Origin: Myxococcales bacterium
Lineage (GTDB): Bacteria > Myxococcota > Myxococcia > Myxococcales > UBA5297
DNA length: 64,000 nucleotides
NCBI GenBank assembly: GCA_049841135.1
Contig: JASGHK010000008.1
Span: forward strand, 19,272-83,271
Direction: 5' to 3'
Shown piece after piece: positions 19,044-59,516 of the stretch. The stretch's first letter is position 1. Each line of letters starts with the position of its first letter. The notes beneath the pieces are model-generated. The model worked only from the letters and a program-made list of their open reading frames with translations, was not told the DNA's origin and did no database searches. A program made the position numbers and the translations under genes.

Positions 19044-19140
19044 GCGGGCGGGCGGGACGCCCGCAACCACAGGGCCCTCCCGCCTCCTTCACTGGAGGCA
19101 GGGCAGGACAGGAGCTCAAGCCAGGCAAGAGCCGTGGCGG

Positions 19141-19228
19141 CTGAAGAGCTCCAACGTAGATCGCAACGACCAGAGACGAACCCCCTCCCGCAGTTGGGAG
19201 AGTTGGGAGGGGGCAGGGGGGAGGGCTC
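19141..19228. repeat. dispersed intergenic repeat copy (core ccccctcccgcagttggga)
   Basis: Shares a 60-80 bp core with the copies at 38290-38355 and 58025-58120. Confidence 0.6.
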
Positions 19229-21331: not shown

Positions 21332-21421
21332 GGTGGGGTGAGATAGCCCCGACCGTGCGCCGCGGGCAAGCCTGGTTGCGTCGGGAGGGCGCGGTCACGA
21401 TTCGGCGGGCGCGCGGTCGCT

Positions 21422-21627
21422 GCCGGCGGCTGAAGCCGCGCCTGACGTTGCCAAGCCTGCCTTCGCAGGCTGGGTGGTCAACGGATTCGAAAGCACCGGA
21501 AGGGAGACACGGCCCAAGCGCTCCAGCACACCGTTGCCGTTCATCCCGGCTGGCGCCTTCAGGTCCAACTCCCACCCAGCCCGCGAAGGCGGGCTTCGTA
21601 ATGTCAGGCGCGGCTTCAGCCGCCGGC
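21422..21627. repeat. 206-bp inverted-repeat element (56-bp arms, 51/56 identical, about 96-bp spacer), each arm with an internal hairpin
   Basis: Arm 21422-21476 is the reverse complement of arm 21573-21627 with 5 mismatches. Internal hairpins gcctgc-cttc-gcaggc and gcccgc-gaag-gcgggc. It lies about 90-300 nt upstream of the metallopeptidase start. Confidence 0.7.
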
Positions 21628-21659
21628 ACTGCGCGGACCGGGTCGCTTCTCCTCGCCCC

Positions 21660-32129: not shown

Positions 32130-32564
32130 GCAGAGTCCGATCGATCGGACTTGGAGTCCGCCGCGCGCGCGGGCGACCCGACACCCCGAGCTTGTCGGGG
32201 GCCAGGCTTTGTGCCTGGGAGGTCTTCTCCTACATCGCGTACTCGCACACACGGGCCGCCGCGACCACGGAGCGGCTCCCGCTAGTGGCGGTGCGATCCC
32301 TCGGCTCATCCCCGCGCCCGCGGGGAACCCGCCTGGACCGTTACGAAGAGCTGGTCGGCGTTCGGCTCATCCCTGCGCCCGCGGGGACACTGGTCGCGGA
32401 GCTGGTGGACCTTGACCGCGCACGGCTCTGCAACACACCGGGTGGAGTGCGTTCCCTCCGTTCCCGCCATCTCCATGCGAGCAGGCGCCCCCAACCAGAG
32501 TCCGCGGCCGTCGGCCATCGCCGGGCATGGCCTTCGATGGGACGCTCGTGCGAAGGTCCGGCGC

Positions 32565-34115
32565 ATGGCCCTGTTCAACTTCTTCAAGAAGAAGCCGGCA
32601 CCCTCGACGCCACGCTCCACCCCCGAGCGCGAGCCGCCTGCGGTTCCCTTCACCCCTCCTCCCGGCGTGGAGTTCGGCGGCGCCGCCGCTCCTCCGCCGG
32701 CGCCGCGCCCGCCCTTGGCGCTGCCCGAGCTGGACGAGCCGGTGCCCGAGGGCCAGCGGCGAATTCTGACGCTGCGCTTCGAGGGCGAGCGGAAGTCCGA
32801 GGTCCTCTCCCGCGAGCTGACGCTCGACGGCGGCCGGGTCCGGGTGTTCGACGCGAAGGCCGATGCTCGAGACCCGCGCAAGCCCACGGAGGTCTTCGAT
32901 GACCATCGCGAGCGCTTCGCCCGCCCCGAGGATGCCCGCAAGCACTTCCAGGAGCTGGCGAAGGAGGCCTGGCAGGGCTTCATGAAGATGACGCGCGAGG
33001 TGCGCCTGGCTCCGGCGGAGCCCTCGCCGGCCCTCGTCCCGGTCGCCGTGAACCCGGAGCTGGAGGCCGCCTTCGAGAACGCGAGCGAGTCCGAGGCGCC
33101 CAAGGTGGCCCGGGTGCTCGCCGACTGGCTGCAGGAGCGGGGCGACCCGCGCGGCGTCTGTGCGGCGCAGCTCCAGCAGGGCCAGCACGAGGCCGCGCGC
33201 GAGCTCTTCGAGGCGCGGCTCTTGGGCGAGCTGGAGACCGCGGTGGGCGTCGAACTGTACGACCTCAAGTGGCGCGAGGGGTTCCTGGTCGGCGCGAGCT
33301 TGAAGCGCCGCCGCCGCGACCCGCGCGCCCAACTCGCGGCGCTGACCCGCGACTTCCTGAAGCTGCCGGTAGCCCGCTTCGTCACGGCGCTGCGCTTCGG
33401 ACTGGCGAGCTACGACAGCGACAACTCCTGGACGGAGACGCTGCGCGCGGTGGCCGAGTCGCCGCGGGGGCCGTTCGTGCGCGAGCTGCGCTTCGACGAC
33501 TACGGCAGCAAGGACTGCGAGCTGTCGTGGACTCCCTTCGGCGATTTTTCGGCTTGCTGGAAGAAGCTGCCGTCGCTCGAGCTCGTACACCTCCGCTCCG
33601 GCGCCGGCGGGACCCTGGGCGAGCTCGACCTCCCCAACCTCAAGACGTTCGTGCGCGAATCGACCGGGCTCTCCGCGGAGGAGATCGGCAGCGTGCTCGC
33701 GGCCCGCTGGCCGAGGCTCGAGAAGCTCGAGCTGTGGCTGGGCACCGAGGAATACGGCACGGGCTGCTCGGTCGAGCTGCTTCGGCCGCTGCTCGACGGC
33801 AAGGTCCCGCCGAGCCTCAAGCACCTGGGGCTCGTCAACTGCGAGTTCGCGCCGGAGGAGCTCACGGCGCTGCTGCGCTCCAAGGTGCTCCGGCAGCTCG
33901 AGGTGCTCGACCTGTCGAAGGGCGTGCTGATGGACCAGGACGTGGAGATCCTTCTCGCGAACCAGGGCGCGGTCCGGCACCTGAGGCGCCTGGACCTTTC
34001 GGAGAACCTGCTCGACGAGTCGGTCGCGCGGCTCAAGGAAGCGCTGCCCAACCTCGAGGTGGGCGAGCAGCGCTCCGAGGAGGATGAGGGCCGGTTCACG
34101 GCCGTCGGGGAGTGA
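32565..34115 (+). CDS. TIGR02996-domain / leucine-rich-repeat protein
   Basis: VARVLADWLQERGDPRGV is the hallmark TIGR02996 motif. C-terminal LRR-like LxxLxLxxN repeats. Confidence 0.55.
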   Translation: MALFNFFKKKPAPSTPRSTPEREPPAVPFTPPPGVEFGGAAAPPPAPRPPLALPELDEPVPEGQRRILTLRFEGERKSEVLSRELTLDGGRVRVFDAKADARDPRKPTEVFDDHRERFARPEDARKHFQELAKEAWQGFMKMTREVRLAPAEPSPALVPVAVNPELEAAFENASESEAPKVARVLADWLQERGDPRGVCAAQLQQGQHEAARELFEARLLGELETAVGVELYDLKWREGFLVGASLKRRRRDPRAQLAALTRDFLKLPVARFVTALRFGLASYDSDNSWTETLRAVAESPRGPFVRELRFDDYGSKDCELSWTPFGDFSACWKKLPSLELVHLRSGAGGTLGELDLPNLKTFVRESTGLSAEEIGSVLAARWPRLEKLELWLGTEEYGTGCSVELLRPLLDGKVPPSLKHLGLVNCEFAPEELTALLRSKVLRQLEVLDLSKGVLMDQDVEILLANQGAVRHLRRLDLSENLLDESVARLKEALPNLEVGEQRSEEDEGRFTAVGE

Positions 34116-34187
34116 CCCGCATCCGTCGAGGAGCCCCACCGAGAACTGAAGTGCCGCCCGGGGCGCGCTGCTCTACAGTGCGCAGCC

Positions 34188-37100
34188 ATGGAAAACCTCC
34201 TCGACCACCTCCGGCACCACGGCCTCGGCGACGCCTTCCCTCCTGACGCCCTCGACAGCGGCGCCGCCGCCGTCGGCCAGGGCCGGGTCAGCCGCCCGCG
34301 GGTCACGGGCCCCCGCGCCGCCGCCTACGTGGCCGACGACCGCCTGGGCCGCTGCCGAGCCGAGCTTCGCGTGGGCCCGGACGGCCTCGCCGGCGAGTGC
34401 AGCTGCGGCCGGCTCCACTGCCACCACCTCGCCGCGCTCTCGCTGATGCTCACCGGCGGGGCCCTCCCGGGAGCCAACGCGGACGACGGCAGCCGCGGCG
34501 CGGCCACGGACCCCAAGCACGGGGAGCGGCAGCGCCGGGCGGAGCGCGCGCGCTCGGGGCTCTTCGAAGTGGCGCCTCTCGACCGCGACGCGGCCCCCTA
34601 CGGCCGCTACCAGGTCAGCTCTCCTTCAGGCCGCACCTACCTCGTGACGCTGCGCGCGTTCGACCAGGCCCACAACAGCTGCACCTGCCAGGACTTCGCG
34701 CTCAACCTCCTGGGCACCTGCAAGCACGTCGAGGCGGTGATCGCCTCGCTCGAGTCCCGGCGCTCGACCCGCAAGCTGCTCCTGGCGGCGCGAGAGAACG
34801 GGCCCCGCCGCAGCTACCTCTACCTGGCCCATGAGCCGACGCAGCAGGTGCGCCTGCGCAGCCGGGGCCGCTCGCTCGCCGCCGCCCGCTTCGCGCGCCG
34901 CTGGTTCGACGGCGACGGGGAGCCCAAGGTCGCCTCGCCGGACGACTGGCCCGAGGTGCTGGCCGAGGCCCGCCAGGCGCAGGTCGAGGTGCCCGACGAG
35001 GTCGACCGCCACGTCTCGCGCTCGCTGCAGCAGGCCGCGCAGCAGCGGCGAGTCACCGCGCTGGAGGCGCGGGCCCGCCGCGACGGCGCCGGGCAGCCGG
35101 GCTTCGCGGGCAAGCTCTACCCGTACCAGGTCGAGGGGACCGCCTTCCTGCTCAGCCGCGGCCGCGCGCTGCTCGCCGACGACATGGGACTCGGCAAGAC
35201 CGCGCAGGCCATCGCCGCCATGTCGCGCCTCTTCTGGTCCAAGGAGATCGCCCGGGCGCTGGTGGTCTGCCCCGCCTCGCTCAAGCACCAGTGGGCCCAG
35301 GAGATCTCCCGCTTCTGCGCCGTGCCCGGCGTGGGCACCACGGTCATCGGCGGCTCGCGCGAGCAGCGCCTGACCGCCTACGCCCAGGCCCGGGAGATCG
35401 TGGTGACGAGCTACGAGCTGATGCGCGCCGACGAGGAGGAGATCGGCAAGCTCGCCCCGGACCTGCTCGTGCTCGACGAGGCCCAGCGCATCAAGAACTG
35501 GCGCACCCGCACCTCGGACGTCGTCAAGCGCTTCCCGACACGGCTGGCCTACGTGCTCACCGGTACGCCGCTCGAGAACCGGCTCGACGACCTCTACAGC
35601 CTGATGCAGGTCGTGGACCCCCACGTCTTCGGGCCGCTGTGGCGCTTCAACCAGGACTTCACCTCGCTCGACGAGCGCGGGCGGGTGCAGGGCTACCGCA
35701 ACCTGATCGAGCTGCGCGCCCGCATCGCGCCGCACTTCCTGCGGCGCCGGAAGGAGGAGGTGCTGCTGCAGCTCCCCGAGCGCCTGGTCAGCCGGCTCAC
35801 CGTGCCGCTCGACGAGGAGCAGCGCGCCATCCACGACGAGGCCGAGTCGGTGGTGGCGCGCATCCTGGCCGTCCTCAGGCGTCGGCCGCTCTCGCCCATC
35901 GAGGAGAAGCGGCTGATGGCCGCCTTCCAGCGCATGCGCATGTCCTGCGACGCCGCGCGGCTGGTGGACGACGAGGCGCACGCCAAGGGCTCGGCCAAGC
36001 TCGACGAGCTGGAGCGGCTCTTGGAGGAGATTCTGCCTGCAGGGCGGCCACAAGGTGGTGGTCTTCAGCGAGTGGGAGAAGATGCAGGCCCTGGCGGCCC
36101 GCGTCGCCACGCGCCTGAAGGTGGGCCACGTGCGGCTGCACGGCGGGGTCCCCACCGAGCAGCGCGGCGCGCTCATCGAGCGCTTCCGCAACGACCCGGC
36201 CTGCCAGGTCTTCTTCTCCACCGACGCCGGCGGCGTGGGCCTCAACCTGCAGGCGGCCGATCACCTGATCAACCTCGACCTGCCCTGGAACCCGGCGGTG
36301 CTCGCCCAGCGCATCGGCCGCGTCCACCGGCTGGGCCAGAAGAGCACCGTGAACGTGGTGCTGCTGGTCGCCGAGGAGAGCTTCGAGAGCCGCATGGAGC
36401 TGACCCTGGAGGCCAAGCGCGGGCTCTTCGAGGCGACCGTCGGCGCGGACACCGAGACTGACTCGATGGAGCGCTCGACGCTGGCGCGGCGCATCGCCAC
36501 GCTGCTCAACGAGAGCTTCGCTGCGACGACCGCCAAGCTGCCCGTCGAGCCCGCCGAGCCGACCGCCGCAATCGCCGAGGCGGCTCCCGGCACGCCGCCC
36601 GACCCGGTCGCCGAGGCGCGCAAGCGGCTGGGCGAGCAGACGCTCGACAGGCTGATGCGGACGCGGGACGGAAGGCTCGTGGGCATCGTCGCCGAGGGTG
36701 CGGCGCTGCCGCCCCCGGAGGCGGCCGGCCCTGTGATGCTGCTGCCGGCGCAGGCGGCGACCGCGCTGGGGGCCTTCGGCGAGGCCTCCCCGCTCTCCGG
36801 CGCGGAGGTGCTCTTCGAGCGCGCCACCGCCCCGGCGCTCTCCCCCGAGCACGAGCGTCGCTCCGGCCAGCTCGCCGCCGCGCAGCGCAAGCTCGCCGGC
36901 GCCCGCGCGCTGGCGGCTCAGGATTTGGGCGGCGAGGCGCTCGGCCTGCTGCGCGATGGCCTCGCGCTCCTCTGCCGTGCAGCCGCGGCGACCGATCCCG
37001 GAGAGGCCACGCCGGCGCTGCTGGCGACGGTCTTCGGGGAGCTGGTGCCGAGCTCGGCGCTGACCGCGTCGGAGGCGGCGGCCTTGGCCCGCGCCGGCGA

Positions 37101-37233
37101 GCTGGCCCGAGCCTTCGGCTCCAGCCCGGCACGGCCTCCGGCTCCGCTCGTGGAGGATCTCGCCAAGGAAGCCAGCGCGCTCCACGCGCGGCTGAGCCAG
37201 AGCCTGGTGGCCGGCACGCAAGCGGTGGCCTGA
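34188..37233 (+). CDS. SWIM zinc-finger SNF2-family helicase; apparent +1 frameshift near 36037
   Basis: SWIM CxC...CxH (ECSCGRLHCHH, SCTCQDF...CKH). SNF2 motifs DDMGLGKT, DEAQRIKN and TGTPLENR. After ...LEEIL the frame shifts to ...QGGHKVVVFSEWEKM with helicase-C QRIGRVHRLGQ. Removing one C restores EEILLQGGHKVVVF. Confidence 0.8.
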
Positions 37234-37476
37234 GGGAGGGCTCAGGCTTTCTGCCATGCCTTCGGCGGCAGCAACCGTTTCCGTTGTGGAAACCGTTGCT
37301 GCGGCGCCCGGGGAGACGGTCGAGACCGCGCCGGTCGAGGCGCGGTCGAAGAAGGCCGCGGAGCGCGGTCCGAGAAGCTGGTCTCGATGCGGCGCGAGCG
37401 CGGGTTCCAGCAGGTCTGAAGATGGGAATCCAGGCCGCGCCCGCGTTACCCTTCCGCCACTTCACAAGGGGGCACC

Positions 37477-38214
37477 ATGGCACGGCCCGGAGAGTGGAAG
37501 CAGGTCGGCAGCGAGAACGCCTTCGCCAACACCATCGCCGCCACGACCAACGGCAAGGCGATGTACAGCGTCGAGCAGAACGGACAGCTCTTCCGGACCG
37601 ACCTGGCGACCGGTGACTGGCAGGAGCTCGGCGCGGGCGGCTTCGCCGAGACCCGCTGGATGGGCTTCTCGAACGGCCACCTCTACACCCTGGAGAAGAG
37701 CGGCTCGATCTACCGCGTCAGCCCGCAAGACGGGAGCTACGCGCAGGTGGGCGACGACTACGCCTGGAAGGAGTCCATCGCCGCCACCGCGCTCGACGGC
37801 CGCCTGTACTCCGTCGAGCGCAACGGCCAGCTCTTCCGGACCGACCTCGCCAGCGGCGCCTGGGAGGAGATCGGCAACGGCGATTTCGCCAACACCCGGT
37901 TCCTGACCGCCACGGCCGGAAAGCTCTACAGCATCGAGAGCAACGGGCAGCTCTTCGAGATCAGCCCGGCCGACGGCAGCTACCTCGAGGTCGGCGACGG
38001 CGGCTTCGCCGAGACGATGCTCGCCGAAGGCGTGGACGGGGTGCTCGTCAGCATCGAGAAGAACGGCCAGCTCTTCCGCACCAACCTCGCCAGCGGGGAG
38101 TGGCAGGAGCTGGGCGACGGCGGCTTCGCCGAGAGCCGGATCCTGCTGCCGGCCGGCAGCGGCCGCGTCTTCACGCTCGAGCGCAGCGGCGCGCTCTACG
38201 AGGTCGCCATCTGA
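37477..38214 (+). CDS. five-bladed beta-propeller lectin-like protein (tachylectin-2-like, 5 x about 47 aa repeats)
   Basis: Five repeats of ...W.E.G.GGFA......G.LYS.E.NGQLFRT.LA.G.... The 245 aa length and 47-aa period match tachylectin-2 architecture. Confidence 0.55.
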   Translation: MARPGEWKQVGSENAFANTIAATTNGKAMYSVEQNGQLFRTDLATGDWQELGAGGFAETRWMGFSNGHLYTLEKSGSIYRVSPQDGSYAQVGDDYAWKESIAATALDGRLYSVERNGQLFRTDLASGAWEEIGNGDFANTRFLTATAGKLYSIESNGQLFEISPADGSYLEVGDGGFAETMLAEGVDGVLVSIEKNGQLFRTNLASGEWQELGDGGFAESRILLPAGSGRVFTLERSGALYEVAI

Positions 38215-38289
38215 CGCCCGGCGCGGGCGTCGCGCCCGCGACCCGCCCTTGCCCCTCGCTTGGCACCCTCGGCGCTCCAGCAGCGATGG

Positions 38290-38355
38290 TGGCGGCCGAA
38301 GAGCTTCGCCCAGGGTGGCCGAAGCCGACGAACGAACCCCCTCGGGGAGGGCCCG
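38290..38355. repeat. dispersed intergenic repeat copy (ggcggccgaagagcttcgcccagggtggccgaag...accccctc)
   Basis: About 80% identical to 58025-58095. Partial match to 19141-19228. Confidence 0.6.
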
Positions 38356-38472
38356 CCGCCGCTTGCCCTGCCCTTTCGATCTTCGCTGCCCATGACGAAG
38401 CGGCCCCCCGCTCCACGGAGGGAGCGGGGGGCCGCGAAGGTCAGGCGGGCCTCGGTGGACCCGCGAGCGGGC

Positions 38473-41400
38473 CTACTGCACCCGGATGGTGAAGGACCCG
38501 GTCAGGGTCGAGGAGTAGGAGTCCACGTAGAGGTAGTACGTGGTGCCCGCCGCGCCGTTGATGGTGAGCGTCTCGGCGCCGCTGTACGAGGCATCCGAAG
38601 CGTTGACGCAGGTCGAGCCGGTGCCGCCGCAGGTGGTGGTGGTGTACCAGACGGCCACGTCCCAGGAGGCCGGCGTCACCGTCACCGTGAAGTTGCCGGC
38701 GGCGGTCGGCGTGTAGCTGTAGACGACCTCCTTACCCGGCGCGTTGTAGTCGCCCATGCCCGCGTAGCACGTGCTCGACAGGCTCGAGCCGTAGTCCGCG
38801 ACCGCCAGCGCGGTGTCTCCGGACACCGTGGTGCCCAGCGTGAGCGGGATGGCGTTGGCGCCGTCGGTGCCGCAGGCGTCGTTGGCCGGCGGGTCCATGG
38901 TCACGAGATCCAGCTTGTACGCACCGGCGGAGCTCGAGTACCCGTCGACCCACACGTAGTAGGTGGTGTTGGCCGTCGGGGCGGTGAGCGTCACGGAGGC
39001 GATGGTGCCCGCCGCGTTGCTTGTGCCGGCGCTGGAGTTGTACGTGCAGGCGACCTGCGCGGCGGCGGCAGTGTCCGAGCAGGCCGAGCGCACGTAGACC
39101 AGCGGCTTGAGCGAGCCGGTGTTCGACGCGGTCAGGGTCACCTTCACCGGCTTCGGCGTCGCGCCGGAGTTGAAGGAGTAGACGACGTCCCCGCCCGTCG
39201 TGCTCGACGTGCAGCCGCTGGTGGGCAGCGTGGTGGCGTCGGCGCCCAGCGTGTTCCCCGTCACGGAGATGGGGCCGGCGGTGACGTCGCCCAGGTCCTG
39301 GGCGCTCGTGCACGCGTCGTTGGCCGGGGCGTCGACCGGGATCAGGTCCAGCTTGTAGCCACCGATCGCCGAGCTGTAGCCGTCCACCCACACGTAGTAC
39401 GGCGTGTTGGCGGTCATCCCGGTCACGGGGATGCCCACCGTCCCGCCTGCGGTGCTCGAGTAGTCGCAGGCGACCTGGGCGGTGGCGGTCTCGTCGGCGC
39501 AGGCCTTGCGGACATACACCAGCGGCTTGAAGTCCTGCGTGGTGCTGCTGAGCAGGACCTGCACGCCCTTCGGCGTCGCTCCGGAGTTGAAGGAGTAGAC
39601 GACGTCCGCGCCGGTGGTGCTCGAGGTGCAGCTGGTGGTCGGCAGCGTCGAGGCGTTGGCGAGGTAGGTGTACCCCGACGCCGTCAGCGGCCCGGCGCTC
39701 ACGTCGCCCAGGTCCTGGGCGGTGGCGCACACGTCGTTGGTGGGCGGCAGGATTGGCGCCCCCGTCTTCAGCTCCAGCGTGAACTTGCCGTAGCTGCTGG
39801 CCAGGCCGTCGACGACCACGAAGTACTGGCCGGCGGCGAGGTTGTAGGCGGTGGCGGCGACCGCCACCGTGCTGCTGCTCTTGGCGCACGCCTTCTCGTC
39901 CGCCGAAGCCGGACTGGCGCAGTTGCTGCGCAGGTAGACCGCCGGCTGCCAGCCCGTCGCCGACGCGTCTGGCGTCACCTTGGCCACCACGGAGGCCGCC
40001 GCGGAGAGGCTGAAGGTGTAGACCACGTCGCTGCCGGTCATGGTCACGCCGGTGCCGCCGCAGGTGCCGCTGTAGTCGTCGAAGGCGGCCGAGGTGTCCC
40101 CAATCACCGTGGCCTGTCCCGAGCCGGCGGTCAGCGCCGCGGTCAGGTCGTGGACACCGCCGGAGGTGACCGCCGAGCAGAGGTCGTTGGCGGGCGGAGC
40201 CGGGGGATCGGCCAGGGTCACGGTGAGGGTGAACGGCCCCTTGGAGGTGCTGTACCCGTCGGCCCAGAGGTAGTAGGTGCCCGCGGGGAGGCGCCGGTAG
40301 CTGAAGGCCGCGGGGGTTGCCCCGCTGCTCTCCTTGCAGGCCAGCTCGTCGGCGGCGGCGACGGTGGTGCACTGGCCCTTGCGCAGGTAGACCACCGCGG
40401 TGTTGGTGGTGGTGGCGAAGGCCATGCTCACCTGCAGGTCCTTCACGGCGCTGGTCGTCAGCTCGTAGACGAGGTCGTTGCCCAGGCCGGTCCCGCAGCT
40501 GCCGACGCTGCCGCCGTTGGTCTTGGCGCTGGTGGTGTCGCCGTTGAGGACCACCGTGCCGTTGCCGGCGGCGTCAAACCCGGCGATGGCGCTGGGGTTG
40601 CTGCAGTCCTCGTTGGTGATCGTCCCCACCGCGGCGCCGGTGACCTCCAGCTTGAAGGCGCCGGTGGTGCCGCCGGTGCCGTCGACCAGCACGAAGTAGG
40701 TGCCGGCCGGCAGGTACTCGGCGGTGGCGGTGACCGCGGTCCCGGCGGTGGTGGTGGAGGCGCAGGCGCGCTCGCCGTTGCCGGTGCCCGGGCAGCTGGC
40801 GCGGATGTAGACGCCGGGGGCCAGGGTGGTCGGCGCCACCGGGGTCACCTTGGCGGTCACCTTCTGCGGCGCGGCCAGGGTGAAGGAGTAGACGAGGTCC
40901 GCCCCGGTCATCGCCGCGCAGGCGCCGGTGAGGTCGTCGGTGGCGTACCAGGTCTCGGCCTCGGCGGTGGCGGTGGTGCCGTCGACCGCGCCCAGGTCGA
41001 AGGTCCCGGAGGCGCCGGCGCAGACGTCGTTGGCCGGAGCCGCCGGGCTGTCGGTGACGGTCACCTCCAGCGCCACCGGCCCCCGGTCCGTGCTGGAGAA
41101 GGCGTCGACGTAGACGTAGTAGCGGCCGGCGGGCTGCTTGCGCGCGGTGGCCGTGGCGGTGGTGAGGCCCGTGCCGGCCAGGGCGCAGGCCACCTCGTTG
41201 GCGTTGTCCGTCACTCCGCTGTTGCAGGCCTTGCGGATGTAGACGTTGGGGCGCCAGGTGCCGCTGGCCAGGGTGACCTTGGCCGCGAGGTCCTTGTAGC
41301 CGCCGGCCGGCAGGTCCACGGCGTAGACCAGAATCCGGACCCGAGGAGGTGTTGCAGGAGCCGTTGGTGTCGCCGACGGCCAAGGCGGTGTCGGCGTTGA

Positions 41401-44400
41401 CCGTCACCGTCCCGTTGCCGTCGGGGCCGAAGCCGGTGAGGGCCTTGGCCATGGCGCAGGTCTCGGGCAGCGTGTCCTGCGCGCTCAGATCGAGCTTGAA
41501 GGCGCCGGAGGTGGCGGCGTTGCCGTCCACCACGAGGAAGTAGGTGCCGGCAGGCAGGGCCGCGGCGATGGCCGTGGCGGTGCTCGGGGTGCCCGAGCCG
41601 CTGGCGCAGGCGCGCTCCTCGGCGGCCAGGCCCGGGCAGGCGCCGCGCAGGTAGACGTTGGGCACCAGGGTGGAGCCGGTGTCGGCCGCCACCTTGGCCA
41701 CCACGAGCTGGGTCTTGGTGGTGGTGAACTGGAAGACCACGTCACCGCCGGTGCCGGTGCCGCAGCTGCCCACGGAGTCGCTGGCCGCGCCGACCGTGGT
41801 CGCCGAGACCGTCGGAACGGCCACGCCGTCCACGGTGCCCAGGTCCACGGCCGCGGTGCACTGGTCGTTGGCCGGCACGGGCGGCAGGGCCGCCGAGTCG
41901 GTCACCGTGACCACGAGGCTGAAGGGACCGGAGTGCGAGGTGCTGTAGCCGTCGACCCAGATGAAGTAGCGGCCGGCGGGCAGCCGGGTCGCCGCGGCCG
42001 TGACGTTGTAGACGCCCGTGCCGGCAACCGCGCAGGCCAGCTGGTCCGCCGCCGCCGCCGAGGCGCAGCTCTTGCGGATGTAGACGTTGGGCCGGTAGCT
42101 GCCGGTGAAGGTCATCTTCGCGGAGACGTCCTTGGTCTTGCCCGCCGGAACGTCCAGCGCGTAGACGAGGTCGTAGCCCGAGGCGGAATTGCAGGTGCCG
42201 TCGCCCGAGCCGGTGGCGGTCGCGGTGGTGTCGTTGACGGTCACCGCGCCATTGCCCTCGGCGTCGAAGCCGGTCAGCGCCAGCGGCGAGGCGCAGTCGT
42301 CGCCCGTGCGGCCCACGGCCGAGCCGGTGACGGTGAGGCTGAACTTGCCCGCGGTCTTGGAGCGGCCGTCGACGATCACGTAGTAGGTCCCGGCCGGGAG
42401 CGTCTGCAGGGTGGCCGTCGCCGCGCCGCCGCCCGTGGTGGCCGTGGCGCAGCCGAGGTCCTCGGCGGTGGTGCCGGGGCAGGCGGTCCGGACGTACACC
42501 GAGGGGTAGTACGTCGTCTGGCCGCTGTCCGGGGTGACCTTGGCCACCACCTTCTGCGCGCTGTTGAGGGTGAAGGTGTAGACCAGGTCGCCGCCGTCGT
42601 GCGGGTAGGTCGCCGTGGCGCAGCCGCCCGCGGTGTCGTTGAGGGCGTTGGTCGTGTCCTGAGCAGCCTGGGTCAGCGTCACGCCGTCGGCGATGCCCAG
42701 GTCGATGGCGCCGGCGCACGCGTCGTTCGCGGGCGGCGGGACGATCACCGTGTCGGCCAGCGTGACCGTGAGCGTGAAGGCCCCCTTGTGCGAGGTGCTG
42801 TACGAGTCGGCGTACACGTAGTAGCGGCCCGCCGGCAGCTTCTTGGGCGAGACGGTGATGGTGTTGACGCCGGAGGCCGCAGAGCCGCAGCCGACCTCGT
42901 TGGCCGAGTCGGTCACGACCGCCGTGCAGGCCTTGCGGACGTACAGGACGGGCCGGTTGGTGGTGGAGGTGAAGGCCATCACCGCCGTGACGTCCTTGGT
43001 CATCCCCGCCGGGACGTCGAAGGAGTAGACGAGGTCGGGGCCGGTGGCGCTCTCGCACGAGCCGTCGGTCTCGGTGGTGTTGCTGGTGGTGTCGCCGTTG
43101 GCGGTGGCGGTGCCGTTGCCGCTGGCGTCGAAGCCGGTCAGGGGAAGGGCTGCCATGCAGGTCTCGCCCGCGGTGAGCGTGACGGCGGTCAGGTCGAGCT
43201 TGAAGGCGCCGGCGGTGCCGGCGAAGCCGTCGACCACGGCGTAGTAGGTCCCGGCCGGCAGGACCGCCGAGGTGGTGGCGGTGCCGCCGACGGCGGTGGC
43301 GGCCTTGCAGGAGGCCTCATCGGCGGCGAGCGGGCTGGCGCACGCCTTTCGCAGGTAGACCACCGGGCGGAAGGTCGAAGTGGTGGTGCTCAGCGCCGCG
43401 GTGACGGTGGCCGGCGCGGTGAGGGTGAAGGCGTAGACGAAGTCGGGGCTCGAGTCGCCGCCGCAGCTGCCGACCGAGTCGTTGGCCGCGCCGACGAGCG
43501 TGCCGCTGACGCTGGCCGCACCGGCGGTGAAGGCCAGCTCGAGCGCGGGCGAGCAGGTGTCGGCATTGCCGCAGGCGCTGCCGGCGCCGCACACGCCGCT
43601 CTTGCAGTCGCTGGCGGCCAGGCACTCGACGCAGGCCTGGGACGGGTTGCACAGGTGCTTGGCCCCGGCCGTGCAGTCGGCGTCCGCCAGGCACTCCACG
43701 CAGGTCTGGGCGGTGTTGCACTTGGGCGCCCCGGCGGCGGTGCAGTGGGCGTCGGTGACGCAGTTCACGCAGCCGTGGGCGGCCACGTCGCAGACCGGCT
43801 TGCCGGCGACGGTGGCGCAGCCGCTGTCGGAATCGCAGCCGCTCTTGCAGGTCGACACCACCGTGTCGCAGTACTCGAGCGCGCCGCAGTCGGCGGTCGC
43901 CAGACACTGGACGCAGCTCTTGCTGGGGTTGTCGCAGCGGGTGAGCCCGGGCGTCGTGCAGTCGGTGTCGGCGAGGCAGCCCACGCAGGTGTGGACCGGC
44001 ACTTCGCACACCGGCAGGGCGGCGGTGCAGCCGGCGTTGTCGTCGCAGCCGGCGTGGCAGGTCTTGGCCGCCGTGTCGCACCAGCTGTCCGCGGCGCAGT
44101 CGGCGGTGCTCAGGCAGGCGACGCAGGCCTTGGCCGCGGTGTCGCACTTCTTGTCGGCGCCGGTGCAGTCGAGGTCGGCGAGGCAGCCCACGCAGGTGTG
44201 GGTCGGGATCTCGCAGACGGGCTTGCCGGTCACCGTGGCGCAGCCGGCGTTGGCGTCGCAGCCCGGCTGGCAGGCCTTGGCCGCCGTGTCACACCAGTTG
44301 CCCGCGCCGCAGTCGGAGGTGGCCAGGCACCCCACGCAGCTGTTGGTGGCCGAGTCGCACTTCTTCGCCGTCCCGGTGCACTGCGTGTCGTTGAGGCAGG

Positions 44401-45436
44401 CGACGCAGGCGTGGGCCGCGACGTCGCACACCGGCTTGCCGCTCACGCCGGCGCAGTCGGCGCTCTCGCCGCACCCGGGCTGGCAGAGGTGGACCGCGGT
44501 GTCGCAGTAGTGGCCCGCGGCGCAGTCGGCGGTGGCCAGGCACGCCACGCAGACCTTGTTGGCGGGGTCGCACTTCTTGTCGGCGCCGGTGCAGTTGGCG
44601 TCGGACAGGCAGGTGACGCAGGTGCCGGCGGCGGTGTCGCACAGCGGCTTGCCCGCCACGTTGGCGCAGTCGGCGTCGCCGGCGCAGCCCGCCTTGCAGC
44701 GGTGGTCGGTGCTGTCGCAGTAGGCGCCCTGGCCGCAGTCGGCCTTGGCCAGGCACTCGACGCAGACCTTGGCGGCCGCGTTGCACTTGGGCGTCGTCCC
44801 GCCGCAGTCGCCGTCGGCGAGGCAGGCCACGCAGGCGTGGGCCGCGGTGTCACAGACCGGCTTGCCGGCGACACCGGCACAGTCGTCGCTCTCGTTGCAG
44901 CCCGGCTTGCACGCCCTGGCGTCGCAGTAGTTGCCCGCGGCGCAGTCGCTGGTCGCAAGGCACGCCACGCAGGCCTTGGCGTCGGGGTCGCAGCGCTTGG
45001 TGTCGCCGGTGCAGTCGCCGTCGAGCAGGCAGCCCACGCAGGTGTTGGTGGTGGTGTCGCACAGCGGCTTGCCGGTGACCGTGGCGCAGCCGGCGTTGTC
45101 CTGGCAGCCCGCCTTGCAGTGGAAGCTCGAGTCGCAGAAGGTGCCGTCGCCGCAGGTGGCGCACGGGGTTCCGCACCCGTTGTCGCCGCACTCCTTGCCG
45201 AAGCACTGGGGAACGCAGGTGTCGGTGCAGGTGTTGTTGGTGGTGTCGCAGGTCTGGTTGGCGCCGCAGCACGTCGTGCCGCAGGGCTTGGCGCAGCCGG
45301 CGTCGGGTTTCACCGCGGCGTCGGGTTTCACCGAAGCGTCCTGCGCGACGTTGGCGTCGGGGGTGAGTTCGATCTCTTCGGGACAACCAGCGAGGAGCAA
45401 GGCGGCCAGGAGGCCGATGCGAGTCAGCAGTTTCAT
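38473..45436 (-). CDS. giant (about 2,320 aa) cell-surface lipoprotein: about 12 Cys-rich 45-aa repeats followed by about 14 repeated beta-sandwich (PPC-like) domains; apparent +1 frameshift near 41331
   Basis: GGAGG RBS. MKLLTRIGLLAALLLAGC lipobox at 45436. Repeats of ...CD.A...CV.CL...DC......CD......C..GC. The repeated module is roughly 145 aa. After ...NTSSGPD the frame shifts and continues LVYAVDLPAGGYKDL. An extra T in gatt explains the shift. Confidence 0.75.
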
Positions 45437-45960
45437 TCGTCCCCTCCAGAGGGAGACAGGTTTTAGGTTCGCGCCAGCATACGGCACTGTCGTTCCAGCA
45501 CAAACCCCAGCCGCGAACATCGGCCTGCGAGACCGGATCGGCGGCGTGGACGGGCGCCCCGAGTGGATCCCCGGCGAAGGGCTGGAAGTGGAGCTCACCT
45601 ATACGGTGACGGTCCGCCCGCGACCGCCATCACGACCCGAATGGGGAAGCAGAACGGGCGTTGCGCCCGCGAGCCGGTGGTGGTCTCACCGGCCGCCGGT
45701 ACCGCTCGCGCAACGCGGCGAAGCCGGCCCCTACGGATGAGCGTGGATGCGTTCAGCCGCACGGTTGGCCGTCGCCGCGATGGGCAGCAGCGGGTTGACG
45801 CTGTGCTGCCGTCGACGATGACTAGCCAGCCAAAGCGCCACCGACGGCATGGCGCCCATGGCCTACGGCAAACCGTCCGCCTGGGCGACCACGACGTGAA
45901 CCTCACCGCGCTCGTCCTTAAGAGCCGCTCGAAGCCGAAGCTCGCGGGCGTGGCATCGGC

Positions 45961-46300
45961 ACCCCGTCCACCATGTCCACTCCGTCCACCCGGTCCACTC
46001 CGTCCGCCCACGTGCTCTTACTCGGCCCCATTCGTGGCGTGCGTGGCGTGCGTGGCGTGCGTGGCGTGCGTGGCGGTGCGTGGCGGTGCGTGGCGTGCGT
46101 GGCGTGCGTGGCGTTGCGGTGCGGGCGGTGCGCGCGCGCGCGCGGGCGCGCGGCAGTCGCGGCAGTCGCGGCAGTCGCGAAAGGAATGTCGGCCCCAGAC
46201 GCTAGAGTGCCCGACAGTGGTGGACGGTGTGGACGGTGTGGACGGTGTGGACGGTGTCGACGGTGTGGACCTTTGACGGGGTCCCCGAGGGGATCCCACG
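45961..46300. repeat. cluster of 9-bp-period microsatellites: (tccac[tc]c[cg]g)x4, (gtggcgtgc)x9, (gc)n, (gcggcagtc)x3, (gtggacggt)x6
   Basis: Direct reading of 45971-46010, 46034-46115, 46126-46150, 46151-46178 and 46217-46270. The first and last blocks are roughly inverted relative to each other. Confidence 0.75.
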
Positions 46301-46309
46301 GGAGGGGAC

Positions 46310-46921
46310 ATGGACGAGCTGATTCAGAAGAGTGGTGGTTTCCGCAAGTTGGTAAGTTTTCGGGTGGCGGTGCTGACGTACGACGTGACGCTTCGCTTCT
46401 GCGACCAGTTCATTCGCAGGGGCAGCCGCACCCACGACCAGATGGTCCAAGCGGCACGCAGCGGCGCACAGAACATCGCCGAGGGCAGCCTGGCCTCGGC
46501 CACCTCCAAGAAGACCGAGCTCAAGCTCACCGGCGTCGCACGCGCGAGCCTGGGCGAGCTCATCCGCGACTACGAAGACTTCCTGCGGCAGAACCGCCTC
46601 TCGCTCTGGGTCGGCGAGGACGGCAGACGCCAAGGACTCCTCGACCGGCGCTTCAAGACCGTCGACCAGGTCGAGCGCTGGGCGACCGAGTTCGCCGCCA
46701 TCTCCACGCCGTCCACCCAGTCCACTCCGTCGACTCCGTCCAGCCAACCGAGCTCACTCCCCGAATGCTGGGCGAATGCAGGCCACGCGCTCTCCTGCGT
46801 CGCCTTCGGCCTACTGAGCCGCCAGCTCAAGTCGCTGGCCAGGGCCTTCCAGGAGAACGGCGGTTTCACCGAGCGCCTCTACCGCACGCGCAAGCAACAG
46901 CAACAGTCCTGGCGCAGCTGA
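46310..46921 (+). CDS. four-helix-bundle protein (TIGR02436 family) with internal STPSTQSTPSTPSS repeat
   Basis: FRKLVSFRVAVLTYDVTLRF...AQNIAEGSLASATSKKTELKLTGVARASLGEL pattern. The gene is about 55-60% GC, lower than its flanks. It contains tccacgccgtccacccagtccactccgtcgactccgtcc at about 46700-46745, related to the upstream satellite. Confidence 0.6.
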   Translation: MDELIQKSGGFRKLVSFRVAVLTYDVTLRFCDQFIRRGSRTHDQMVQAARSGAQNIAEGSLASATSKKTELKLTGVARASLGELIRDYEDFLRQNRLSLWVGEDGRRQGLLDRRFKTVDQVERWATEFAAISTPSTQSTPSTPSSQPSSLPECWANAGHALSCVAFGLLSRQLKSLARAFQENGGFTERLYRTRKQQQQSWRS

Positions 46922-46992
46922 AGCGCAGGGCGCAAGGAGGGTGGCCAGGCCCGCGACGCAGGCGAGCCTGGCAGCGCTCGGGCGCGGCACGC

Positions 46993-52009: not shown

Positions 52010-53323
52010 ATGACGGAGCTCGCGATCTTTGGGGGCAAGCCTGCAGTGCGCGCAGAGGACCACGTGCGCTGGCCGGTCCTCGGTCAGGAGGATCGCGAGG
52101 CGGTCCTGCGCGTCCTCGACCGCGGCGTGCTCTCCGGCCCGTTCGCACCCGAGGTCCGCGCGCTCGAGTCCGAGTGGGCCAAGTACCTGGGCAGCAAGTG
52201 GTGCCTGGCCACCAACAGCGGCACCGCCGCCATCCACATGGCCATGGCCGCCGCCGGCATCGGCCCGGGCGACGAGGTGATCGTCCCGGCGTTCACCTTC
52301 GTGGCCACCGCCCTCGCCGTGCTCCACCAGGGCGCGGTGCCGGTCTTCGTCGACGTCGAAGAGAAGACCTTCGGCATGGACCCCGCGCAGGTCGAGAAGG
52401 CCATCACCCGGAGGACCAAGGCGGTGATGCCGGTGCACCTGCACGGCACGCCCTGCGACATCGACGCCATCGCCGCGCTCTGCAAGAAGCACAACCTGCT
52501 GCTCATCGAGGACGCGGCGCAGGCGCACGGCAGCACGCACGCCGGCAAGAAGGTGGGCACCATCGGCGCCATCGGCTGCTTCAGCGTGCAGTCGTCCAAG
52601 AGCCTCGCCGCGGGCGAAGGCGGCCTGTTGGTCACCGACAGCGAGGCTCTGTGGGAGCAGGCCAACCGCACCCGCATGTTCGGCGAGAACGTGAAGGCGG
52701 GCGACGAGTCCGGCTACAACCTCCAGCGCGCCCTCGACGGCAACCGCGCCTACGACTCGCTGGGCATGGGCTGGATGTACCGGACCACCGAGCTGTCCGC
52801 CGCCGTCTGCCGCGCGCAGCTCGGCAAGCTCGACAAGTTCAACGCCCAGGCGCAGGCCAACGCCGCGCTCCTGAACAAGCACCTGAAGGAGCTGCCCGGC
52901 GTCACCCCGCCCGAGCCGCGAGCCGGCGACACCAGCTGCTACCACAAGTACCGCGTGGTCCTGGACCCGAAGAAGGCGGGCGTCGACGCGCCGCCCAAGA
53001 AGGTCCGCGACGCGCTCAAGGCGGCGCTCGTCGCCGAGGGCTTGGAGGCGGTGCTCTGGCAGACCCAGCCCGTGCCGGGCCAGGGCCTGTTCAAGAACAA
53101 GGCGGGCTTCGGTGGCCGGGCGTTCCCGTTCGACCAGTCGCCGCAGGTCAACTACGACCTGGGCCAGTTCCCGACGACCACGCGGCTGCTCGACTCGTCG
53201 ATCGTGCTCTTCTCGCACACCTGCCCCATCGCGCCGCAGCCGACGAAGCTGGTCGAGGCCTACGCCGAGACCTTCACCCGCGTCTGGAAGCGCCTGGGCG
53301 ACGTGGTGGCCAAGGCGAAGTAG
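52010..53323 (+). CDS. DegT/DnrJ/EryC1/StrS-family PLP-dependent aminotransferase
   Basis: GPFAPEVRALESEWAKYLGSKWCLATNSGTAAIHMA...FSVQSSKSLAAGEGG with the family PLP-Lys context. Confidence 0.85.
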   Translation: MTELAIFGGKPAVRAEDHVRWPVLGQEDREAVLRVLDRGVLSGPFAPEVRALESEWAKYLGSKWCLATNSGTAAIHMAMAAAGIGPGDEVIVPAFTFVATALAVLHQGAVPVFVDVEEKTFGMDPAQVEKAITRRTKAVMPVHLHGTPCDIDAIAALCKKHNLLLIEDAAQAHGSTHAGKKVGTIGAIGCFSVQSSKSLAAGEGGLLVTDSEALWEQANRTRMFGENVKAGDESGYNLQRALDGNRAYDSLGMGWMYRTTELSAAVCRAQLGKLDKFNAQAQANAALLNKHLKELPGVTPPEPRAGDTSCYHKYRVVLDPKKAGVDAPPKKVRDALKAALVAEGLEAVLWQTQPVPGQGLFKNKAGFGGRAFPFDQSPQVNYDLGQFPTTTRLLDSSIVLFSHTCPIAPQPTKLVEAYAETFTRVWKRLGDVVAKAK

Positions 53324-53339
53324 CGGCCCTCCCCCTACT

Positions 53340-53460
53340 CCTCCCCCCTCCCCGACCTTCAACCTGCGGGAGGGGCGTTCGTCCCGCGGCTTCGGCTGTC
53401 TTGGTCGGAGCTGCTCGGACTCCTCGGATCGCCGGCCTTGTGCCGGAAAGCACTCTGAGC
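53340..53460. repeat. dispersed intergenic repeat copy (caacctgcgggaggggcgttcgtcccgcggcttcggc...ggtcggagctgctc)
   Basis: About 85% identical over about 75 bp to 57765-57840. Confidence 0.65.
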
Positions 53461-53589
53461 GACCACCGACGGGCTGTCTGTCCTGCCCTATCCAGTGGAT
53501 GGAGGAGGACCCTGTGGTTGCGGGCGTCCCGCCCGCGCGCCCGCGCACGGGGCCGCCTCGGCTCTCGCAACGCCTCGGGAGATGCACTC

Positions 53590-57094: not shown

Positions 57095-57209
57095 AGGCTT
57101 GAGGGCGTCAAAGCGCCAGCTTGATTGCCCTGCGTCACCCGAGCGTGGTAGGTCCGAGCCCGTGAACAAGCTCAGCACCCGAGACGGTCGCTTCGCTGCC
57201 CTGCGTCGG

Positions 57210-57738
57210 ATGGCGCTGGCGGGGATCGCCCTGGTGCTCTGTGGCGCGGAGGCCGCGATGGAGCCGAAGTTCGGCCCGAACGACATCGAGACGCTCTTCT
57301 TCATCAACAAGAGCGACGACAAGAACCGCGTGGACTACGGCCTTCGGCTGGACGCCAACTGCCAGCCGGTGGGCAGCGACCCGGTCTTCCCGTACTGGCG
57401 CGAGTTCGAGAACGCCCCGCCGGTGAAGACGCACACGCTCAAGTTCTTCGAGTACGCGGGCTACGGCGTGGTCGGCGTGAAGGTCACCAAGAACGAAGGC
57501 GGCGCCGACATCTCGCTCAAGCTCAAGCCGCTCTCCCGGGAGCTCGTCATCTCCACCGGCAAGGGCCCGGACGGCAAGTGCATGGCCGTGGTGCGCAGCA
57601 CCATCGCCGACGTGCAGGGGGCCGAGCTCAAGAGCGCGTACATCAAGCTCAAGTACGGCTGGACGGTCGACTACGTCGACGTGTTCGGCAAGCACCCCAT
57701 CACCGGGGCGGAGCTCGACCGAGCGGCTCAAGCAGTAG
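57210..57738 (+). CDS. secreted hypothetical protein; 3' end uncertain
   Basis: Signal peptide MALAGIALVLCGAEA. The in-frame ORF continues to 57932 through a dispersed repeat. A +1 error in gggg at 57706-57709 would end the protein ...HPITGRSSTERLKQ* at TAG 57736-57738. Confidence 0.45.
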
Positions 57739-57744
57739 GCAGCC

Positions 57745-57900
57745 CTGCCCTCGCAGCCCTCCCTCCCAACTGCGGGAGGGGTTCGTCCCGTGGCTTCGGC
57801 GATCCTGGTCGGAGCTGCTCCAACTCCCTTGGCTTCCTGCGACGCACAATTTCGGTGCGAGCAGGAGCGCTAGCGCTCCAAGGCCTCGGCGTCGCATCCC
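57745..57900. repeat. dispersed intergenic repeat copy (tcccaactgcgggaggggttcgtcccgtggcttcggc...)
   Basis: Matches 53340-53460. The core is the reverse complement of ccctcccgcagttggga. Confidence 0.65.
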
Positions 57901-58024
57901 TTCAGACCCGCACCGGTGTCGGCGAACGCTGACATACCTTGCGCGGGGTCATGTCAGCGTACCCATACCGTCTGCCCCGGGACGCCCATGCCGAGACTGG
58001 CTTCATGAGTAGTCGCCGGCCGAT

Positions 58025-58120
58025 CGCGGCGGCAGAAGAGCTCCGACCTGGGTGGCCGAAGGCAACCTACGGACCCCCTCCCGCAGTTGGGAAGGGGCAG
58101 GGGGACGGCCCGCAAACGCG
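58025..58120. repeat. dispersed intergenic repeat copy (ggcggcagaagagctccgacctgggtggccgaag...ccccctcccgcagttgggaaggggcaggggg)
   Basis: Matches 38290-38355 and 19141-19228. Confidence 0.65.
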
Positions 58121-58181
58121 AAGCCGGCGAGATCTCTCGATCGCGCCGGCCTCGTGAACTGACCTCAGCGACCCGCTCGAA

Positions 58182-59516
58182 CTAGGCGTTCGCCTCGCTC
58201 TTGCGGCTGCCCTTGGAGGGCCGCTCGGGCTTCTCGGCCTTCTCCGGAGCCTTCTCGCCGTTACCCTTGGCCTCGCCGGCCGGCTTGGCGGCCTGGCCGC
58301 CGCAGCGCGGAGCCGCGTTCAGGAAGCAGCCGTAGCGCAGGCGCTCGTCCAGGCGGCAGGACCAGACCAGCTCGCCGTTGTGCACGGTCATGTCCGGGCA
58401 GCCGTCGCACATGTTGGCTTCGCCGTCCGCCATGAAGTCGATGGGCTGGATGATGGCGATGGACTGGAAGTACTGCTTCTTGAGCGCCTTCATCGGGTTG
58501 CTGACCAGGCTCTTGGCCCAGCCCATGGCCGCCTTGCGCAGGCTGGGGTCGACCAGCGCGCCGCCGGCCAGGAGCGACCGGCCCATCTTCAGCGCCGCCG
58601 GGTCGGAGTAGGCGACGTACTTGTTGAAGAGCAGGTGGTGGCTGGACTGCATCAGCTCCATGAACTTGGGGCCGACGTAGCCGGAGATGCTCTCCTTGTC
58701 GCCCACGCGGCCGGTCACCAGCCACTTGAAGCTCTGCGGGTCCTTGGTGCCGCCCAGGTACGCGCAGGGCTCGAAGGCCGGGTCCTCTTCGCGGATCTTG
58801 GCGACGAGGTCGTTCGCGGTGAGCGGCTGGGGGAGCTTGCTCTCGTCGTAGTACACGAGCTCCTTCGGGTCCACCGGCTTGCCCTGCGCGTAGTAGTCGA
58901 AGTCGGTGGTGCGGCTGGTGCGGAAGAGGATGAGCACCATGGAGTGGACGATGTCCATGTGCTCCTTGGCCCACTTCAGCATCCCGGGGATCTGGTCCAG
59001 GGTGTGCGGGTAGACGGTGGAGTTGAACGCCACCGACATGCCGCCCACGTCCGCGACCATCTGCGCGTACTTCAGGCGCAGCTCGCACAGCTCGATCTCG
59101 CTCTTGCCGGTCCAGCCGCCCGGGCGGTGCTGGCCGGAGTCGATGTGGAAGGTGAAGCCGAAGACGCCGGCCTTCTTCAGGTCGCGCACCAGCTCGGGGG
59201 TCAGCGCCAACGCGTTGGAGTTGACGATCGGCTTGAGGCCGTACTCCTGCTTGATGATGCGGACGATCTCGACGATGTCCGGGTGGATCAGCGGGTCGCC
59301 GCCGGTGATGGACACGGAGTCGAAGCGGCGGTTCTTGCGGAACACCTCGAGATCCGCGCGGATCTGGTCGAGCGTCTTGTCGGAGTTCTTCTCGTTCCGG
59401 CTGTAGCAGCCCTCGCAGTACAGGTTGCAGCGCTTGGTCGGCTCGAGCCACACCAGCACGTTGTCGTTGAGGGACCAGGGAAGTCGGTAATAGCGGCTGG
59501 GGTCAAGCGTAGCCAT
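58182..59516 (-). CDS. radical SAM protein, HpnH-like (CNLYCEGC cluster plus C-terminal Cys-rich DUF3463-like region)
   Basis: GGAG RBS. LVWLEPTKRCNLYCEGCY CxxxCxxC motif. GGDPLIH. C-terminal MCDGCPDMTVHNGELVWSCRLDERLRYGC. It is the 3' part of an antisense-spanning 1,882-aa artefact ORF. Confidence 0.7.
   Translation of the reverse strand: MATLDPSRYYRLPWSLNDNVLVWLEPTKRCNLYCEGCYSRNEKNSDKTLDQIRADLEVFRKNRRFDSVSITGGDPLIHPDIVEIVRIIKQEYGLKPIVNSNALALTPELVRDLKKAGVFGFTFHIDSGQHRPGGWTGKSEIELCELRLKYAQMVADVGGMSVAFNSTVYPHTLDQIPGMLKWAKEHMDIVHSMVLILFRTSRTTDFDYYAQGKPVDPKELVYYDESKLPQPLTANDLVAKIREEDPAFEPCAYLGGTKDPQSFKWLVTGRVGDKESISGYVGPKFMELMQSSHHLLFNKYVAYSDPAALKMGRSLLAGGALVDPSLRKAAMGWAKSLVSNPMKALKKQYFQSIAIIQPIDFMADGEANMCDGCPDMTVHNGELVWSCRLDERLRYGCFLNAAPRCGGQAAKPAGEAKGNGEKAPEKAEKPERPSKGSRKSEANA

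Follow-up and report, generated by a model that had tools for sequence, protein, structure and literature searches.

The gap between the DUF4833 gene and the radical SAM gene contains two sequences that recur in further gaps of the window—the whole 64-kb stretch of DNA analysed here, which comes from an uncultured myxobacterium—and the question that arises is what kind of element they represent and what such an element might do beside genes. An earlier note had described a dispersed family occurring at five or more intergenic loci. A covariance model (R1), run with filters off and on both strands, recovers five copies in four intergenic gaps; the figure thus stands for copies but not for gaps, since two of them, termed D and E, occupy one. 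The positions proposed previously agree with those of the model to within ~10–60 nt. The statement that D and E lie before the radical SAM gene has to be turned round: this gene is encoded on the minus strand (58182 to ~59450), and the gap lies downstream of its 3′ end. The five copies score 52.7–90.7 bits and the best match outside the family 12.5 bits (E 0.59), which leaves a gap of ~40 bits, and an nhmmer profile yields five matches in the window at E 1e-14 to 1e-19 with none further under E=1. Both models were trained on these copies, the informative part being the absence of a sixth or intermediate match. The 17-mer core CCCTCCCGCAGTTGGGA has three exact sites (19183, plus strand; 57764, minus strand; 58076, plus strand) and a fourth with 3 mismatches at 53358 on the minus strand; allowing up to 3 mismatches, 0.54 sites are expected from shuffled sequence versus 4 observed, and 0 of 100 shuffles reach 4. 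A 26-nt gapped pattern matches 4 copies in the window as against 0.00 expected. Because the G+C content of the window is 66–74% and GC hairpins abound in it, GC-rich look-alikes are a concern; the shuffle and model controls are nonetheless clear and agree on a real dispersed intergenic repeat family whose similarities are significant.

Together with an inverted pair, L022a and L022b, found in the Myxococcales MAG DASXVQ010000114.1 (L022/L051), the copies define a unit of ~85–105 nt, typically ~100 nt, which comprises a C-rich leader and two hairpins that differ from each other. In the orientation of the adjoining gene, a C-rich tract (CCCTCCCCCCTGCCCCCTCCC) is followed by hairpin 1, the linker UUCGUCC, hairpin 2, and a CUUC-GCCGCC end. 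Hairpin 1 (consensus CCCUCCC, loop AACUGC, GGGAGGG) has a stem of 7–10 bp and a 6-nt loop; hairpin 2 pairs GGCUUCGGC with GGUCGGAGCU across a loop of 5–7 nt. GGAGCU, GUUCG, and GGGAGGGG are near-invariant across copies. The conserved hairpins that the earlier note proposed to look for are indeed found when the copies are folded. Hairpin 1 is stable on both strands, with z-scores of −2.3 to −5.2 relative to shuffles in six of the seven copies, the exception being the short variant B (z ~−1.5). Hairpin 2 behaves differently: in B, C, D, and E the sense strand reaches z −2.1 to −4.3 versus −1.4 to +0.6 for the antisense strand, a preference which arises because three of its pairs—present in at least five of the seven copies—are G·U; in A, L022a, and L022b this hairpin is degenerate. 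RNAalifold recovers both hairpins, and covariation is absent (covariation term +3.12, a double change at 1 of 19 pairs). The support for the hairpins accordingly comes from shared ancestry, and the structure is inherited rather than demonstrably selected. Single units, whose two ends differ (the C-rich leader versus CUUC-GCCGCC), lack terminal inverted repeats, and no target-site duplication was seen in the flanks of A, C, D–E, or the L022 pair. In C and D, the C-rich tract opens with ~18 nt that look similar to the orthologous flanks in relatives, so that the 5′ boundary of the unit, and with it the distance to the stop codon, is uncertain.

The strand assigned to each copy is the one on which the neighbouring gene would transcribe it. 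Copy A (19124–19232, minus strand, 87.9 bits) has its C-rich end 3 nt past the TAG of the minus-strand gene 19229–21331; the loop of its hairpin 1 is enlarged. Copy B (38279–38359, minus strand, 52.7 bits) has hairpin 1 reduced to CCCUCCCCGAGGGGG and hairpin 2 kept. Copy C (53320–53436, plus strand, 74.7 bits) starts at the TAG (53321–53323) of a DegT-family aminotransferase gene and has hairpin 2 at 53386–53414. Copy D (57736–57840, plus strand, 85.7 bits) starts at the ancestral TAG (57736–57738) of the DUF4833 gene, with hairpin 1 at 57760–57781 and hairpin 2 at 57790–57818. Its inverted partner E (58016–58116, minus strand, 90.7 bits) has hairpin 1 at 58073–58098 and hairpin 2 at 58041–58061. 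C and D are 87% identical and the remaining pairs in the window 60–78%, which amounts to a mild sequence sub-grouping; the two sub-types in opposite orientations that had been distinguished before turn out, on alignment, to be one element on either strand.

The window also contains repetitive and inserted sequences of other kinds. Copy B lies inside a segment of ~15 kb (32130–46992) that the syntenic contig L034 does not have, its aldehyde dehydrogenase gene being directly followed by the one for the GMC oxidoreductase; the segment encodes an unknown 567-residue protein, an SNF2/SWIM helicase, a DUF6923 protein, and a protein of ~2,300 residues with 213-nt Cys-rich tandem repeats, and upstream of this giant repeat protein there are 9-nt tandem repeats (GTGCGTGGC- and CCGTCCAC-type units) at 45954–46132 and 46690–46742. 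Upstream of the minus-strand gene 19229–21331, an imperfect palindrome at 21421–21628 has 93-nt arms that are 77% complementary and 22 nt apart. An intergenic block of ~290 nt (12640–12930), located upstream of an FAD-dependent (DAO/BFD) oxidoreductase gene, consists of a ~48-nt unit, GCCTCTATGCCGGGGACACCCTTGAGATCCGAGCATCTGAGGCGCGCG, repeated directly, plus an inverted copy that is 90–93% complementary, with an AT-richer centre; it is unrelated to the present family.

All five copies of the window are intergenic by their GC3 profile, as are both L022 copies. Four of the five, and six of the seven known, lie in convergent gaps, and C lies in a co-directional gap directly after a stop codon; the association with gene 3′ ends that the earlier note proposed to look for is thus borne out, by convergent or stop-adjacent placement, in every copy. 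A and an accessory module fill the entire 185-nt convergent gap 19044–19228; B lies mid-gap between the convergent genes 37477–38214 (plus strand) and 38473 onward (minus strand); C and its module fill most of the ~266-nt gap up to the start of the inositol monophosphatase (IMPase) gene at ~53590; and D and E lie at opposite ends of the convergent DUF4833/radical SAM gap. Of the seven known copies, six are informative as to orientation (A, C, D, E, L022a, and L022b), and all six turn hairpin 1 toward the closest stop codon, a bias with a two-sided binomial p=0.03 that assumes pair members to be independent, although they may not be, and that is weakened by the fact that in convergent gaps both sides are gene 3′ ends. 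Five of the seven copies start within ~0–20 nt of the stop codon; B and E are parted from it by another hairpin which possibly already terminates transcription. The 30 nt past the stop codon in A, C, and D contain 60–73% C and 7–17% G, compared with at most 53% C past other genes. The flanking genes are functionally unrelated. A consensus scan of 57500–58400 gave 0 U-tract terminator sites, the tail of hairpin 1 being UUCGUC with no U-run. The same interval holds no sigma-70-like promoter, and the idea that the element is an sRNA gene is therefore without support.

Several copies are accompanied by further structures. The accessory module at copy C (53470–53541, minus strand) consists of a hairpin, GCGGGCGGGACGCCCGC, followed by AACCACAGGG, and is shared with copy A only, where the equivalent module (19044–19120, plus strand) starts directly past the TAG of the plus-strand gene 17286–19043. 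Over 75 nt, the two modules show a 45-nt inverted match at 89% identity and an exact 27-mer occurring twice. Since A and C have both core and module in common, a composite of ~190 nt must have been copied as one piece at least once. Between the radical SAM stop codon (58182–58184) and copy E, a GC-rich hairpin (58119–58154, minus strand; GCCGGCG.GATC-GAGA-GATC.CGCCGGC, then UUCG) of 36 nt is also conserved in L034, in the orthologous gap; it probably serves the radical SAM gene as its own terminator and lies outside the repeat. A perfect 15-bp GC hairpin followed by UUCGUCAU (38400–38435, minus strand), likewise terminator-like and outside the repeat, separates copy B from the stop codon of the minus-strand gene. 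Further terminator-like hairpins in the window also have a UUCG tail rather than a U-run.

Copy D appears to be part of a protein-coding gene, as had been pointed out before, and this requires an explanation. The DUF4833 gene (57099–57738, plus strand) belongs to an ORF that extends to 57932, through copy D, after a +1 frameshift at ~57716. The Pfam DUF4833 match of the ORF 57099–57932 ends at residue 205 of 277, 169 DUF4833 homologues are ~160–220 residues long, and the five closest aligned ones end in ...TERLKQ*. In the window, ERLKQ-TAG is encoded at 57721–57738, one base out of frame; relative to the L034 ortholog there is one extra base near 57716, seven codons upstream of the ancestral TAG, and the GC3 coding signal of the gene ends at ~57720. 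From the frameshift and the end of the coding signal it follows that copy D stands directly after the ancestral stop codon and that the 65-residue extension is an artefact. The ORF does span D, then, but by virtue of a frameshift artefact or lesion, and the element is not inside the gene. Copy D may serve as an annotation flag, a 1-nt frameshift at this position yielding a false 65-residue protein extension. A comparable case is found in the JGI annotation of a related MAG contig (L052), where a spurious 61-residue ORF covers the repeat copy L022b at 12715–12900. Other genes of the window are disrupted as well: the inositol monophosphatase gene has one additional nucleotide near ~53800, at its WIVDPLDG motif; overlapping ORFs (34188–36461 and 36055–37233) divide the SNF2/SWIM helicase between them, and the giant Cys-rich repeat protein is likewise split (38473–41403 and 40574–45598). 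Four frameshifted or split genes suggest assembly indel errors as the likeliest cause, and otherwise pseudogenes. Elsewhere in the window, a short minus-strand ORF at 4295–4795 with a weak match to AbiEii/nucleotidyltransferase toxins (E 1e-4) overlaps the 3′ end of the opposite-strand peroxiredoxin-like gene 3765–4523.

No GC3 coding signal extends across any copy. The 11-residue peptide AAEELRPGWPK is encoded identically by B and E only, and indels of 0, 1, or 2 nt shift the frame elsewhere; the similar peptides that had been dismissed as translation artefacts are just that, with neither GC3 signal nor conserved frame, and coding of a small peptide was rejected on the same grounds. Searches against Rfam gave 0 matches at the gathering threshold over the window and chance-level matches only (E≥2.7) in 57600–58300; no tRNAs were found. 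A six-frame-translation chimera of 1212 residues, compared with proteins in search of ORFs over the repeats, gave no match at E≤1, its candidates being saturated by low-complexity proteins.

The inverted pair D/E bears on the family's history. Its arms (57761–57816 and 58039–58095) are 77–92% complementary, and folding of the entire gap from D to E yields a single extended hairpin in which the two copies pair (plus strand, z −8.05; minus strand, z −5.2). The closest DUF4833 homologues, at 82–85% identity, reside on syntenic contigs, and in one of these, L034, the DUF4833/radical SAM gap aligns with the window at both ends, having the radical SAM-side hairpin and the C-rich starts in common. 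The existence of this diverged ortholog indicates that the pair has been in the gap since before the two lineages split. The same 20–26 nt are missing from both L034 arms: hairpin 1 is without its loop and 3′ arm, and UUCG is gone too. The two arms are 91% identical to each other over a 34-nt common core. By inspection of a four-way alignment, the L034 arms are closer to their partner than to their positional ortholog in the window, and the same is true for D and E. The arms therefore appear, from sequence comparison, to evolve in concert by gene conversion or by selection for complementarity, since loss of the same 20–26-nt segment from both arms points to either continual gene conversion or selection of this kind.

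Outside this lineage, the family is documented in one further genome. The L022a/b pair lies between convergent genes, with its hairpin-1 ends 5–7 nt from the stop codons, at a non-homologous locus that has nothing else in common with the window. Together with the diverged orthologous pair in L034, these two copies show that the element is not genome-specific, contrary to what had been suggested. A scan of genome contigs with the 26-nt gapped pattern returned 33 loci, about the number expected by chance, the family being present in L022 only; the known copies number 5 in the 64-kb window and 2 in 15.5 kb of the L022 MAG. The pair is absent from the orthologous gap in a relative with 76% protein identity, and the family from a contig of different synteny that carries a more distant DUF4833 homologue (P0026/L055). 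Among metagenome contigs, the hairpin-1 pattern gave 13 loci, all of them coding or chance matches (PKLREGF) and none with the family flanks; neither pattern scans of viral contigs nor blastn against plasmids revealed copies. Copies from the two genomes are 65–80% identical, compared with 60–87% within the window, and this similarity of the two ranges implies that the family is old and has undergone no recent burst. The relatives have an intergenic repeat of their own, GCCAAGACGCCAAG...GCCAAGGACTTCGGG (L035 3530–3653, L037 4268–4395, and L054 3165–3324), which occupies gaps where other genomes carry either the present family or nothing; it would seem that every lineage fills its gaps with repeats of its own.

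Taken together, it seems likely, although only moderately so, that these sequences constitute an old, lineage-restricted family of REP/BIME-like extragenic palindromes that act as 3′-end hairpins in transcription termination, mRNA protection, or both. The REP-like character proposed earlier is supported by their nature as GC-rich extragenic palindromes, by placement in convergent or 3′ gaps, and by inverted pairs. The note had placed MITE-like elements alongside REPs, and a MITE origin would cast the pairs D–E and L022a–b as the terminal inverted repeats of a single mobile element ~200–370 nt in length, with A, B, and C as its decayed halves. Inverted pairs with 60–90-nt complementary ends in two genomes would fit this scheme, as would the variable presence of the element among relatives and the ~190-nt composite of core and module copied as one piece in A and C. 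Yet the interiors of the pairs are unrelated and measure ~180 nt in the window versus ~40 nt in L022, and the orthology of D/E to the diverged L034 pair bespeaks long stability at one site. With no transposase or IS in the window, no terminal inverted repeats on single units, no target-site duplication seen at A, C, D–E, or L022, and copies that at 60–87% identity show no recent burst, the MITE-like character is not upheld and a mobile element of this design is improbable. It is more improbable by far that the copies represent chance GC-rich hairpins or short unannotated coding sequences: a genome of 71% G+C is full of GC hairpins, and B and E do encode an identical 11-residue peptide (AAEELRPGWPK), but 0.00–0.54 matches expected against 4 observed in the shuffle controls, the ~40-bit distance between the fifth copy and background, the lack of GC3 signal, and the 1–2-nt indels that break the frame between copies leave this explanation next to no room.

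A different proposition holds that the unit is a selected cis-acting motif with a specific partner—a protein-binding 3′-UTR element, a rut-like Rho loader, or an antisense G-quadruplex—kept in place by its function and not by spread. It would account for the fact that identity across genomes (65–80%) nearly equals that within the genome (60–87%) when ordinary intergenic DNA of relatives with ~82% protein identity no longer aligns, and for the near-invariance of GGAGCU, GUUCG, and GGGAGGGG; the C-rich, G-poor 30 nt after the stop codons of A, C, and D, the strand-specific G·U pairs, and the joint change of both arms of a pair point the same way. Selection on a defined structure is, however, difficult to reconcile with the absence of compensatory changes and with the loss of hairpin 2 in three copies, and neither an Rfam family nor a functional relationship among the flanking genes lends it substance. 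As for G-quadruplexes, the window contains 10 motifs where 8.3 are expected, and among the copies only A, C, and D carry one; being neither enriched nor universal, they were dropped as a candidate. A selected motif of this type is accordingly regarded as doubtful, if somewhat less so than a MITE.

For a REP/BIME-like family of 3′-end hairpins, the following mode of action may be envisaged. The unit may have spread by means of an RAYT-type transposase encoded elsewhere or by recombination; the divergence of the copies implies that this spread is old. It would come to sit shortly past a stop codon, hairpin 1 turned toward the gene, and one unit for each of two convergent genes would make an inverted pair. 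In the transcript of the upstream gene it would make up the 3′ untranslated tail, an RNA that starts with a leader rich in C and poor in G, continues with a highly stable GC hairpin and UUCG, and ends, on that strand only, in a second hairpin held by G·U pairs. By analogy with what has been demonstrated for E. coli REPs, such hairpins may stop or pause RNA polymerase, block 3′-to-5′ exonucleases, or do both. In convergent gaps, the inverted units could pair within a read-through transcript, and the long duplex so formed would curb transcription running on into the opposite gene. A more elaborate version, in which the unit would be a portable 3′-end module composed of a Rho-loading tract, a pause hairpin, and a strand-specific hairpin, and in which a co-evolving inverted pair would insulate convergent transcription units, is a speculative extension that we consider unlikely. 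Transcription termination in very GC-rich bacteria is poorly understood, U-rich intrinsic terminators being scarce there, and a defined, recurring 3′-end module would provide a handle for mapping transcript ends in the large genomes of Myxococcota.

REPs have been reported to terminate transcription in a partially Rho-dependent manner and to stabilise the mRNA upstream of them, and their presence between convergent genes is correlated with increased expression of the two (bioRxiv 10.64898/2026.03.23.713779); they are also known to occur as inverted pairs, termed REPINs (PMC3337134). Like the REP/BIME sequences of Enterobacteria and the REPINs of Pseudomonas, the present elements are GC-rich imperfect palindromes at gene 3′ ends or between convergent genes, occurring singly (A, B, and C) or in inverted pairs, each able to form a single long hairpin; the density is similar, with one locus per ~13–16 kb, and presence or absence likewise differs between relatives. 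Several differences exist nevertheless. REPs measure 20–40 nt and typically number hundreds per genome; the present unit, with its C-rich leader and its two unlike hairpins, is ~100 nt long, and the spacing of the pairs is irregular here (40 and 180 nt). There is no sequence similarity to any described REP, and a Pfam scan of 30 window proteins brought up neither an RAYT nor any other transposase, although an RAYT is normally single-copy and could lie elsewhere in the genome. The GTAG head of enterobacterial REPs was considered too: GTAG is present at A, C, D, and L022b, but its TAG is the neighbouring stop codon, and E, B, and L022a lack the motif. Since TAG is a common stop codon here (15 of 33 in the window), the idea of a GTAG head or TAG target was abandoned. 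A role as terminator or stabiliser has been shown experimentally in E. coli and is proposed for the present family by analogy; with seven known copies, the family is likened to REPs by way of working and is not a proven member of the RAYT-mobilised class. No description of REP, RAYT, or MITE sequences in myxobacteria or Myxococcota was found in the literature.

Other bacteria harbour non-coding repeats of similar size. ERIC/IRU in Enterobacteria, Correia/NEMIS in Neisseria, and BOX/RUP in Streptococcus are elements of 100–150 nt with stable RNA folds which are transcribed together with neighbouring genes and influence how mRNA is processed or how stable it is. ERIC, Correia, and RUP have terminal inverted repeats, BOX is built from boxA-B-C modules, and Correia elements generate TA target duplications; these features are absent from the family described here, which shares no sequence similarity with any of them and has no Rfam match. 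Intrinsic terminators, too, place a stable GC hairpin shortly past the stop codon, and an inverted pair offers such structure on both strands. Their U-run, however, is replaced here by a UUCGUC tail, and ordinary terminators do not form a dispersed family with conserved loop and flanks. The sequences at this locus thus add a new family to a familiar kind of repeat, in a lineage that has been little studied, and do not amount to a new kind of system.
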